A DNA stretch of 64,000 nucleotides from Lingula anatina. Taxonomy: Eukaryota > Animalia > Brachiopoda. The stretch lies in contig CM120641.1 of the NCBI GenBank assembly GCA_051362555.1, forward strand, positions 24,186,401-24,250,400, written 5' to 3'. Below the pieces are notes generated by a model. That model ran no database searches. It saw nothing but the letters and a program-made list of their open reading frames with translations, and had not been told where the DNA came from. Shown one piece after another: positions 12,801 through 18,489 of this stretch. Within the stretch, counting starts at the first letter, position 1. Every line of letters begins with the position of its first letter. The position numbers and the translations under genes were made by a program.

Positions 12801-15800
12801 CCACTGGTAGTGACATTAACTCTTCTTTTTCTTCATAATCCTCAAATATCCATAGATGTTTTTTTTTTTTTTTTCAATGAAAACTTTTTTTTTCATTACA
12901 GATTGACATAATTTTTGCGTCATTCATAAGAAGTGGGGAGCACATCAAACAAATTCGTGAGATTTTGGGAGAGAAGGGAGCTTACATTAGAGTTGTTGCC
13001 AAAATTGAAAACCAAGAAGGCATTCAACAGTAAGATGTCTTTTTTTTTATTTCATTGAGTTGGAGATATAACATCAAATTTTACAGCAATTAAGATATAA
13101 AATTTTTAAAATACGAAAACAACATAACTGAAAAATGAAGCCTGATCTGTCTATGCAGAGAATGTTTGAACTAAATATAAAGCAGTGCAATAATTGTGTA
13201 TAAACCATTGTTTTTTTCCAGTTTTGATGACATTCTCAGTGAGGCAGATGGCATCATGGTAGCCAGAGGGGATCTAGGTATTGAGATCCCCCCTGAAAAG
13301 GTATTTCTGGCACAAAAGATGATGATTGGGCGCTGTAACAGAGCAGGAAAACCAGTCATTTGTGCCACACAGGTGAGTGTGAAGAAAAGCCTCTGAAAGA
13401 AGAAGAAATTTAGTTATGTTCCAAAAATTGAAGATTTCCAAAAAAGCTTAATTGTATAAAAAGATGAGAATTTTGTGTCTGATTTTAAAAGTTAAAAGAA
13501 AGAAATTCAGTTATTTAATCACTTGTAATTTAACAGGAAAAACCTTCCATGGTTTTAAAGTGAAACTTTTGTTTCAGTTATACATTATCACATGCCTACA
13601 AGAAGTCATTATTCCAGTTTTCTATTAAAAATTCAGTTTTACAAACCAGTGGTCATTTTGAATTTGATTCTGTAGATGCTGGAGAGCATGATAAGTAATC
13701 CACGTCCAACTAGAGCAGAGGCCAGCGATGTTGCCAATGCAGTGTTAGACGGAGCAGACTGTGTCATGCTCTCGGGAGAAACTGCCAAAGGAAAATATCC
13801 TCTGGAAGCCCTGAAGATGATGCATCATGTATGTAACAACTTGGAAGTTGTTCATTACTGGAAAATAATAAGAAAATAGAATCCTAAATTGGTTTGTCTG
13901 AAACTTTTCAGTCCACTGCTAAATGGGACTAGTTGGCCCTTTAAATACCACTTGTCAAATTCAAAATTGACTAGTAGGAAGATGAAATCACATACAGCCA
14001 CTGATATAGATTTTGAAAAATCTTCCTAATTTAAGACTGGAAAATCCAATCTACTTGTCACTTGCCTCAGAGCAGTGGTTCACTTTGCTTACTATTATAG
14101 AAAAATTTTGGAGTCTTAGTAATTATGTGATTCATATTTTCAAAGGAAAAATTTACTTTTATATCAAATTGACATTGTGGAATTGTTGAAACTGTTACAA
14201 AGACTTAGTTTGATGCTTTACTAGATCTATAGATCTATCAGGTTAGATCTATATTTTCAACGTGACTGTATTTACTTAGGTATGTAGAGAGGCAGAATCT
14301 GCAGTATTTCACAGACAGCTGTTTGAAGAACTGCGACGTGAGACTCCTATACCCACTGACACCACCCATGCCACTGCCATAGGCGCAGTGCAAGCCGCTA
14401 TTACTGTACAAGCTGCTGCCATCATCGTGGTTACAACTACTGGAAGGTAATGTTAGGACTATATTTATATACCATTGATTATAGTAACTGTTAAATCATG
14501 CAAGTTAAATCTCTGATGGTTAATACAGTCTTAATTCTTTTCTCACTATGATATTTTAATGCTTTAGATAGTAGATGTACTTGTGTTTTTCAGTGGGTCA
14601 TACTTGGTTTTAGTCCATATTGATACCAATTTAAATGAGTATTAAGACCAATAGTGTAATTTAAAGATTAAGCGAATATATTAGGTTCATTATATTAAAA
14701 AAATTGTATATAGTAACTGCTTTGTTATACGAATAATAATGAAGCAAGTAAATTTTTAAATTTTATTGCTTCCCATTGCATGCATGGATCATTAGGTTAA
14801 AAAATAAGCATGGATGCTCATAAGTATTTTTTCTGCTTTAAACTTTTTTATTGCAGGAATTTCTGCTGATGAGGCCTGTCTCTTATATTTTGCCACATTT
14901 TACCCACTAAATGTTGTAATATTTGCAGGAGCAGTTGTATATGTATGAAATAAGTACAATAACATTTGTTCGCAAATGTACTTAAATGTTTTGTCATATA
15001 AAAGTGGTTTATGTAAAACTGCTGTGATGGCCCAAATTGAGGTTATGCACATCTTCTTAGAGAGGGTTTACCTTACCAGCTTGTACATTTCAGTTGTTGC
15101 TCGATATAACATTTTCAGTCCCTGATGAACCAAGAGTTATTGTATGTTAACTTCATCCTGAATCTCTATTTTTGCAATTTCTGGTTCTTTTTTTTTTTTT
15201 CTCTTCTCCTATAGAAGTGCTTTCCTGATTGCTAAGTACCGACCACACTGCCCAGTCATACTTATTACTCGGAAGGGTTTTATGGCTCGGCAAGCTCACA
15301 TGTCCCGAGGAGTTTTCCCCATCCATTTCACTGGTAGGAGGAAGTGGAGTCCTTGAAAAAAATTTTTGTATTTAGTCTAATGCCTTGGGTACTTTTTTGC
15401 ATCTGACTGAGGCTTTGAAAAGTTTTGTACTAAACAAGCAGATTTCTATTTTATTTTATTTTTTGACTGGGTCTGACTCTAAGCATGTTATCAAGATGGC
15501 ATTACATTGCTGTGTGTTTGTTAGAGATTGAATGAGGTCTGCCTATACGTGTGTGAGCATCTTTCTCTACTCTAACTGAACATGGATACTAGGGTATCCT
15601 ACAAGTTGGGTCTTACAACTATAACAACAGCAATGCCACTTACTTCATCTGAGTCAATTCTGTCAAAGTCTAATTTATTTATTGCACGACACGTTTAGCT
15701 GATAACAATGAAAAACCTTAAGACATGTTCCAGCCACGTCCCCTCTGACTTTCATGTGTTTTGCTCTATGTATGTGTACACTATGCTTCCTAGGCTAGAA

Positions 15801-18489: not shown

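Follow-up and report, generated by a model that had tools for sequence, protein, structure and literature searches.

A cassette of seven tandem 119-nt exons encoding a segment of the regulatory domain of pyruvate kinase in Lingula anatina

The pyruvate kinase locus and its seven-exon cassette

In this work we have analysed a 64-kb stretch of DNA, referred to below as the window, which holds the pyruvate kinase gene of Lingula anatina. The terminal exon of this gene is 100% identical to a RefSeq protein (P0001) named pyruvate kinase PKM isoform X6, Lingula anatina. The encoded protein carries the Pfam domains PF00224 (the PK barrel) and PF02887 (the PK_C domain), it scores 733 bits against PKM and its predicted fold has a TM of 0.94 to PKM2. 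The ten exons upstream of the cassette, any single copy of the cassette exon and the terminal exon together give a protein of 565 aa. Each 119-nt exon aligns to 39 residues of human PKM (437-475), and the features of the gene are as follows.

8332-8367, plus strand: upstream coding exon of the 577-aa RefSeq isoforms; the N-terminus of P0001 maps there and GT follows
9877-13828, plus strand: nine constant exons which cover the N, A and B domains, with consistent phases, an open ORF and the Pfam PK barrel
9877-9903, 10811-10991, 11373-11464, 11816-11935 and 12097-12283, plus strand: constant exons 1-5
12523-12665, 12902-13029, 13222-13372 and 13676-13828, plus strand: constant exons 6-9
14280-14446, plus strand: constant 167-nt exon, single copy, which we take to be the counterpart of vertebrate PKM exon 9/10
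15215-15333, plus strand: copy 1; RefSeq X4; R447H, Y466S; 20 entry and 12 exit junction reads
15831-15949, plus strand: copy 2; RefSeq X3; S437T, A438P, Y466V; 19 entry and 25 exit junction reads
16023-16141, plus strand: copy 3, the most diverged; RefSeq X7; R447P, P449V, Y466T, P471C; intact frame and splice sites, RefSeq model, zero junctions listed in 4 runs
16221-16339, plus strand: copy 4; RefSeq X5; S437T, A438P, L440R, Y444M, R447M; 10 entry and 12 exit junction reads
17024-17142, plus strand: copy 5; RefSeq X2; L440S, C448V, Q458Y; 16 entry and 22 exit junction reads
17269-17387, plus strand: copy 6; RefSeq X6; L440H; intact, RefSeq model, zero junctions listed in 4 runs
17554-17672, plus strand: copy 7; RefSeq X1, X8 and X9; S437T, L440N, R447G, C448I; 7 entry and 6 exit junction reads
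18260-18489, plus strand: constant terminal coding exon through the stop codon, 100% to P0001; every listed exit junction ends there

The exon at 8332-8367 has two donors 9 nt apart, which distinguish RefSeq X1 from X8. An exon of a phosphoserine aminotransferase gene lies at 3624-3995 on the minus strand, apparently head-to-head with the pyruvate kinase gene; the position of a serine-synthesis gene beside an enzyme that is regulated by serine in mammals may be a chance adjacency. Elsewhere in the window, an exon with a weak WD40 match at 53268-53702 (minus strand) is presumably coronin-like, and a local repeat on the minus strand consists of two open stretches, 58549-58956 and 59357-59773, which are nearly identical and lie about 810 nt apart.

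The cassette consists of seven tandem exons, each exactly 119 nt long, preceded by AG, followed by GT and open in a phase 2-to-1 frame. A first-pass annotation of the same DNA had proposed this arrangement, and its starts, exon length, borders and intact frames agree with ours for all seven copies, as do the single upstream exon at 14280-14446 and the single terminal exon from 18260. The motifs RP, TR, RQxH and RGxF, which it considered to be shared, are found as ten invariant positions across the seven copies. It had also reasoned that a productive mRNA uses one copy, and among the 128 possible splice combinations the full protein indeed comes from the seven single-copy ones only. Each of the 120 multi-copy combinations gives a truncated product, even those of four or seven copies, which restore the frame (36 frame-restoring combinations in all). 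Skipping of all copies leads to the expected frameshift stop, the product ending after 454 aa, and the join of copy 1 to copy 2, likewise held to be non-productive, is present in RefSeq X10, which is truncated.

An eighth or decayed copy was ruled out in the 64-kb window on both strands with full and half profiles. In leave-one-out scoring the copies reached 60-115 bits, whereas no further site in the window exceeded -18, which places the seven-copy match above chance. The donor GTGGGT is common to copies 2-7 (from 15950, 16142, 16340, 17143, 17388 and 17673 on), with GTAGGA in copy 1, and the shared donor is likely a trace of duplication together with the start of the flanking intron. In copies 2-7 the donor contains a second GT, four bases in, whose use would give 123-nt exons which could be chained in frame; the listed exit joints are all at the first GT. 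A single frame runs without a stop through copy 6, the intron of 166 nt after it and copy 7 (17225-17680), so that this intron could be retained without immediate truncation; this open frame is probably due to chance.

Single-copy splicing and the choice of a copy

To follow the cassette in RNA, four of the nine runs with the same species label (three studies, 6-25% of each run) were mapped on 14200-18600, and junctions were listed from a threshold of 3 reads from 2 starts. The first-pass annotation had suggested counting reads from 14446 to the acceptors and from the donors to 18260, and in these four runs five copies were bridged on both sides: copies 1, 2, 4, 5 and 7 were each joined singly by a total of 149 junction reads (72 entry and 77 exit). 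Neither a skip joint nor any copy-to-copy joint was listed in the four runs at the threshold of 3 reads, and copies 3 and 6 had zero junctions listed, i.e. fewer than 3 reads per run each. The junction 13828-14280, the one upstream constant junction examined in the reads, is seen as loose read ends in all four runs.

The use of the copies differs between runs. Copies 2 and 1 lead in RNA run X4 (39 and 26 of 90) and copies 5 and 4 lead in RNA run X7 (21 and 15 of 51), with p 3e-5 for distinct read starts, 0.019 for entry alone and 0.0003 for exit alone. Tissue, strain, library or stage could account for this difference; at many sites the sequence of RNA run X7 departs from that of the window.

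The RefSeq cluster comprises 11 isoforms, of which X4, X3, X7, X5, X2, X6 and X1 contain copies 1-7, respectively, letter for letter, and X8 and X9 contain copy 7 as well. Two further isoforms, X10 (copies 1+2) and X11 (copies 5+7), are double inclusions, both truncated and frame-shifted, and otherwise the isoforms vary at the N-terminus or by truncation only. X10 and X11 suggest some leak in the exclusion. The earlier claim that seven isoforms are in use thus stands in the reads for copies 1, 2, 4, 5 and 7, copies 3 and 6 being present as RefSeq models; mutual exclusivity agrees with the joints listed in the reads but is not absolute, since RefSeq X10 and X11 join two copies.

How could a single copy be chosen? 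Under the 50-nt rule for nonsense-mediated decay, which may not hold in brachiopods, 111 of the 120 multi-copy products are predicted targets, and decay would remove most double inclusions. Nine multi-copy products and the skip product would escape it (10 wrong products, none listed in the reads), and decay alone is therefore insufficient for choosing one copy. The choice itself would be made at splicing. Copy 3 is separated from copy 2 by an intron of 73 nt and from copy 4 by one of 79 nt, whereas the introns further upstream in the gene measure 161-907 nt, and at such short distances crowding may bar the joins between copies 2 and 3 and between copies 3 and 4, which would help exclusion. The likely choosers would be RBFOX-type proteins on intronic UGCAUG and/or the pairing of those elements with one upstream site.

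14770-14791, plus strand: candidate docking site and double UGCAUG element in the upstream intron, the best window of the duplex scan
16174, 16198, 16356, 17186 and 17476, plus strand: five further intronic TGCATG, after copies 3, 4, 5 and 6

TGCATG occurs seven times in the 2980 nt of cassette introns, where 1.3 are expected (p 4e-4, for a motif spotted by eye before the test), and once in the 3221 nt of the other introns of the gene; two of the seven overlap (14777, 14781). Intronic UGCAUG near the exons, the mark of RBFOX control, is thus present, as recognized post hoc. The pairing of 14770-14791 with the inter-copy introns was equalled by 2 of 70 shuffles, a comparison which the near-palindromic motif confounds. 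Taken singly, the introns after copies 4, 5 and 6 were equalled by 17, 15 and 3 of 300 shuffles and those after copies 1, 2 and 3 by 33, 171 and 166 of 300. Because UGCAUG is near-palindromic, protein sites and RNA pairing are indistinguishable at 14770-14791. A docking site in the downstream intron was rejected (-89.0 against a null mean of -92.3), and so were donor-hiding hairpins after each copy, which look plausible by eye and were not above shuffles (combined p 0.27). The stretch 14200-19500 gave 0 Rfam matches to known structured RNA. The intron between copies 4 and 5 (16340-17023) had a better fold than any of 20 shuffles (z -2.4) and has inverted arms at 16484-16556 and 16862-16917; in RNA run X7 a stretch of this intron (16841-16885) is replaced.

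Divergence of the copies and the segment they encode

The copies are 38-67% identical to each other in protein and 39-65% in DNA, and their identity by codon position is 0.55, 0.71 and 0.33. With a mean pS of 0.79, at which synonymous sites are saturated, against a pN of 0.35, and with AG, GT and frame kept despite this saturated synonymous change, the copies are under purifying selection, as the first-pass annotation had claimed. In a simulation of neutral drift (substitutions only) the probability that a copy retains AG, GT and frame was 0.009-0.16. Of the 122 rows of read differences 40 were listed; in these, all 6 differences that fall in copies 4, 5 and 7 are synonymous (probability by chance 2.5e-4), as are all 6 in the flanking constant exons.

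Identity to the family consensus is 41-62% for the copies, with copy 3 at 41% and copy 6 among the most consensus-like, and for other sequences the median is 79% and the minimum 59%. The copies are more diverged than nearly any single-copy ortholog, as would be expected under relaxed constraint and equally with a new function. In the exon tree (38 rows, 39 columns, Daphnia left out) all seven lie on long branches, 0.2-1.2 among those listed as against a median of 0.14, and a single origin was neither shown nor rejected (p-AU 0.48). One ancestral exon may have been tandemly duplicated, repeatedly, in the lineage leading to Lingula.

What does the swapped segment contribute to the enzyme? In a structure model of the copy 3 isoform (alignment of 110 sequences, pLDDT 87.9, TM 0.94 to PKM2) it consists of helix 462-469, strand 475-480, helix 483-491 and strand 495-499. 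An alignment-based model mostly mirrors the family, and it is therefore no proof that copy 3 folds; a single-sequence fold (pLDDT 40) was discarded. The first-pass annotation spoke of rebuilding the allosteric domain. The exchanged piece does belong to the regulatory C-domain, but it comprises 39 residues (helix-strand-helix-strand) and not the whole domain. Alanine inhibits invertebrate pyruvate kinase in anoxia, and a literature search for a link between isoforms of the invertebrate enzyme and alanine or anoxia found nothing useful.

The segment includes residues with tested roles in ligand binding. In PKM2, S437Y abolishes FBP binding and H464A abolishes serine binding (PMC4072945, a meeting abstract). 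According to PMC10004559, I469, N70, N44 and G46 contact bound amino acids, with I469 bonding to them, and R436, S434 and W482 belong to the FBP site. Most FBP-site residues lie in the constant exons (432-434, W482, R489 and the 514-521 loop). Within the segment, S/T437, R445, R455, H464 and a hydrophobic residue at 469 are kept in all seven copies. Across 97 distinct segments from 115 other proteins S437, R447 and P471 never vary; at these positions four copies have T437, four have replaced R447 (by H, P, M and G) and copy 3 has C471. L440, found in 93 of the 97 other segments, is replaced in four copies in four ways. When the comparison was widened to 169 segments, T437 turned up 21 times, and 163 of the segments had R447. 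Ligand contacts that are kept within changed surroundings form a pattern which, as far as sequence goes, points to tuning and is not proof of it; changed sensitivity would be expected rather than loss of the sites. We infer that the isoforms are differently regulated from the position of the segment at FBP- and serine-binding residues.

Related systems and the meaning of the cassette

The closest known case is the vertebrate PKM1/PKM2 switch, which is similar in enzyme family and domain, in its duplicated exons used singly and in an exon length that is not a multiple of three. Vertebrate PKM exon 9/10 is 167 nt long, and the piece swapped there holds the dimer-dimer helices. In PKM1/PKM2 this preceding exon is duplicated and has two copies, whereas in Lingula the next exon has seven; the Lingula piece holds the ligand residues 437 and 464-471, and the PKM1/PKM2 piece does not. 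The 167-nt exon ending at R436, which alternates in PKM1/PKM2, has one copy in the window and one version across all 11 RefSeq isoforms, and the first-pass annotation was thus right that a different exon has been amplified.

Measured against the description of mutually exclusive clusters in Hatje et al. 2017 (PMC5740500), the copies are homologous neighbours of like length, frame and phase (7 x 119 nt, 38-67% aa), five of the seven have bridging reads on both sides, copies 3 and 6 having RefSeq models, and no joins of members leave the frame unshifted, as the RefSeq joins 1+2 and 5+7 both shift it. With the tandem-duplication clusters in that paper and in Ivanov and Pervouchine 2018 (PMC6071210) the cassette shares equal-length homologous exons for the same structural element, bridging junction reads and a frame shift upon double inclusion; the same papers give lengths not divisible by three for 60% of human clusters. 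Unlike those clusters, it has seven members in a housekeeping glycolytic enzyme. PMC6071210 also argues that decay is unable to police clusters of more than three, whereas in Lingula 36 of 36 frame-restoring combinations still stop early and 10 wrong products would escape decay. For the Dscam exon 6 cluster that paper describes an upstream docking site with selectors. Lingula has a similar tandem array, and its upstream window pairs best ahead of copies 5, 6 and 7, but the pairing is borderline and absent ahead of copies 3 and 4, and there is one cluster with seven products and no combinatorial diversity. The label "Dscam-like" therefore suits the tandem cluster and little else.

Exons 6a/6e of coq-2 in C. 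elegans, and also in molluscs and annelids, are mutually exclusive and serve anaerobic metabolism (PMC8659336). There too a metabolic enzyme is changed by an exclusive exon, but the exons are two, the case is experimentally shown and the active site is altered. RBFOX controls exons of unc-32 and egl-15 in C. elegans, and UGCAUG steers the unc-32 choice (PMC3585155); that small system is experimentally shown, whereas for Lingula such control is suggested by motif occurrence. For Daphnia pyruvate kinase, exon skipping under copper is reported in PMC7318467. We found no paper on the Lingula cassette in a search which covered few of the subscription journals, and genome-wide splice tables (e.g. 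MetazExp) may contain the event without comment.

In 42 other species groups (19 + 23) there is one version of the 39-residue segment each among the listed isoforms (protein models, at most 15 members per cluster), which upholds the view that these animals have no such cassette. Among 355 proteins holding the segment, a set with no named brachiopod or phoronid relative, the best non-Lingula match to any copy has 27 of 39 identities and none outside Lingula has two copies. Other variants of the C domain, known from protein models, involve a different exon in each lineage. The ribbon worm Tubulanus polymorphus has four diverged versions of the preceding 59-60-residue segment in 20 isoforms, as judged from protein sequences probably a four-way cassette; the variants (P0004, P0044, P0045, P0048) correspond to vertebrate PKM exon 9/10. 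Two paralogous last exons are found in 12 of 20 mollusc groups (11/17 + 1/3), for example P0070 and P0081, P0067 and P0189-P0200, P0233 and P0123, and P0273 and P0083; the Lingula last exon resembles the shorter mollusc type. Optional short peptides directly after the 39-residue segment occur in Lineus (P0029-P0043; up to about 60 residues, in many combinations), Penaeus, Macrobrachium, Patella, Haliotis, Argopecten and Littorina.

The Lingula cassette is a genuine mutually exclusive cluster, under selection and expressed, which is unusually large and belongs to a core enzyme. We think it probable, though far from certain, that one 119-nt exon of the seven enters each mRNA and retunes the response to FBP and amino acids. 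The swap of a 39-residue piece of the regulatory C-domain would then change how the enzyme responds and leave the catalytic barrel constant. Could the seven proteins instead be nearly equivalent, redundant copies which are kept foldable and each drift faster under a partial load? Their long branches and unchanged ligand-contact residues would agree with this, as would the TP start of copies 2 and 4, which a pyruvate kinase of solved structure (PDB 1a3w) shares. However, for synonymous divergence to be saturated all seven must have been retained for long, otherwise invariant positions have changed repeatedly (R447 and L440 four ways each) and usage differs between runs, and we consider near-equivalence unlikely. 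The copies might also differ in tetramer stability, modification sites or binding partners and not in small-molecule allostery, given that R447, replaced in four of them, is according to a review (PMC11944880) a PKM2 methylation site promoting the tetramer, like R445 and R455. That methylation is reported there for mammals, R445 and R455 are kept in all copies and the segment carries directly tested ligand residues, which makes this explanation distinctly improbable.

It is more doubtful still that about five copies are used, with 3 and 6 rare or fading, and that unproductive double inclusion mainly dials the amount of enzyme. The empty junction lists of copies 3 and 6, the divergence of copy 3 (41% to consensus), the RefSeq double-inclusion models and the 111 of 120 multi-copy products predicted as decay targets speak for it, but both copies have retained their length, frame and splice sites although synonymous change is saturated, and both have RefSeq isoforms, copy 6 is among the most consensus-like, and the RNA base is 4 of 9 runs with 6-25% of each. 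An assembly artefact or a collapse of paralogous genes is refuted, as the copies are just 39-65% identical in DNA and the reads run through the introns and connect every copy in use with one and the same pair of flanking exons.

The kind of system is already known, and the isoforms are in automated RefSeq annotation; no description seems to exist of its seven-way form or of the way in which C-domain exons have been duplicated lineage by lineage. Perhaps the cassette is a seven-position dial of glycolysis, set by tissue, stage or oxygen, with an FBP and amino-acid response of its own for each exon, and the C domain a recurrent hotspot whose three exons were independently duplicated across animals, an idea which we put forward tentatively, as possible rather than probable. 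The neighbouring exons duplicated in other lineages suggest repeated invention. If the idea of a hotspot is true, the 167-nt exon (vertebrates, ribbon worm), the 119-nt exon (Lingula) and the last exon (molluscs) would be swappable regulatory modules. PKM1/PKM2, with its two states, is the classic example of metabolism being rewired through splicing, and in Lingula another part of that domain exists in seven versions. As naturally selected variants of an otherwise constant enzyme, varied at residues including 437, 447 and 471, which hardly vary in other animals, they would be a ready series for the tuning of pyruvate kinase allostery.
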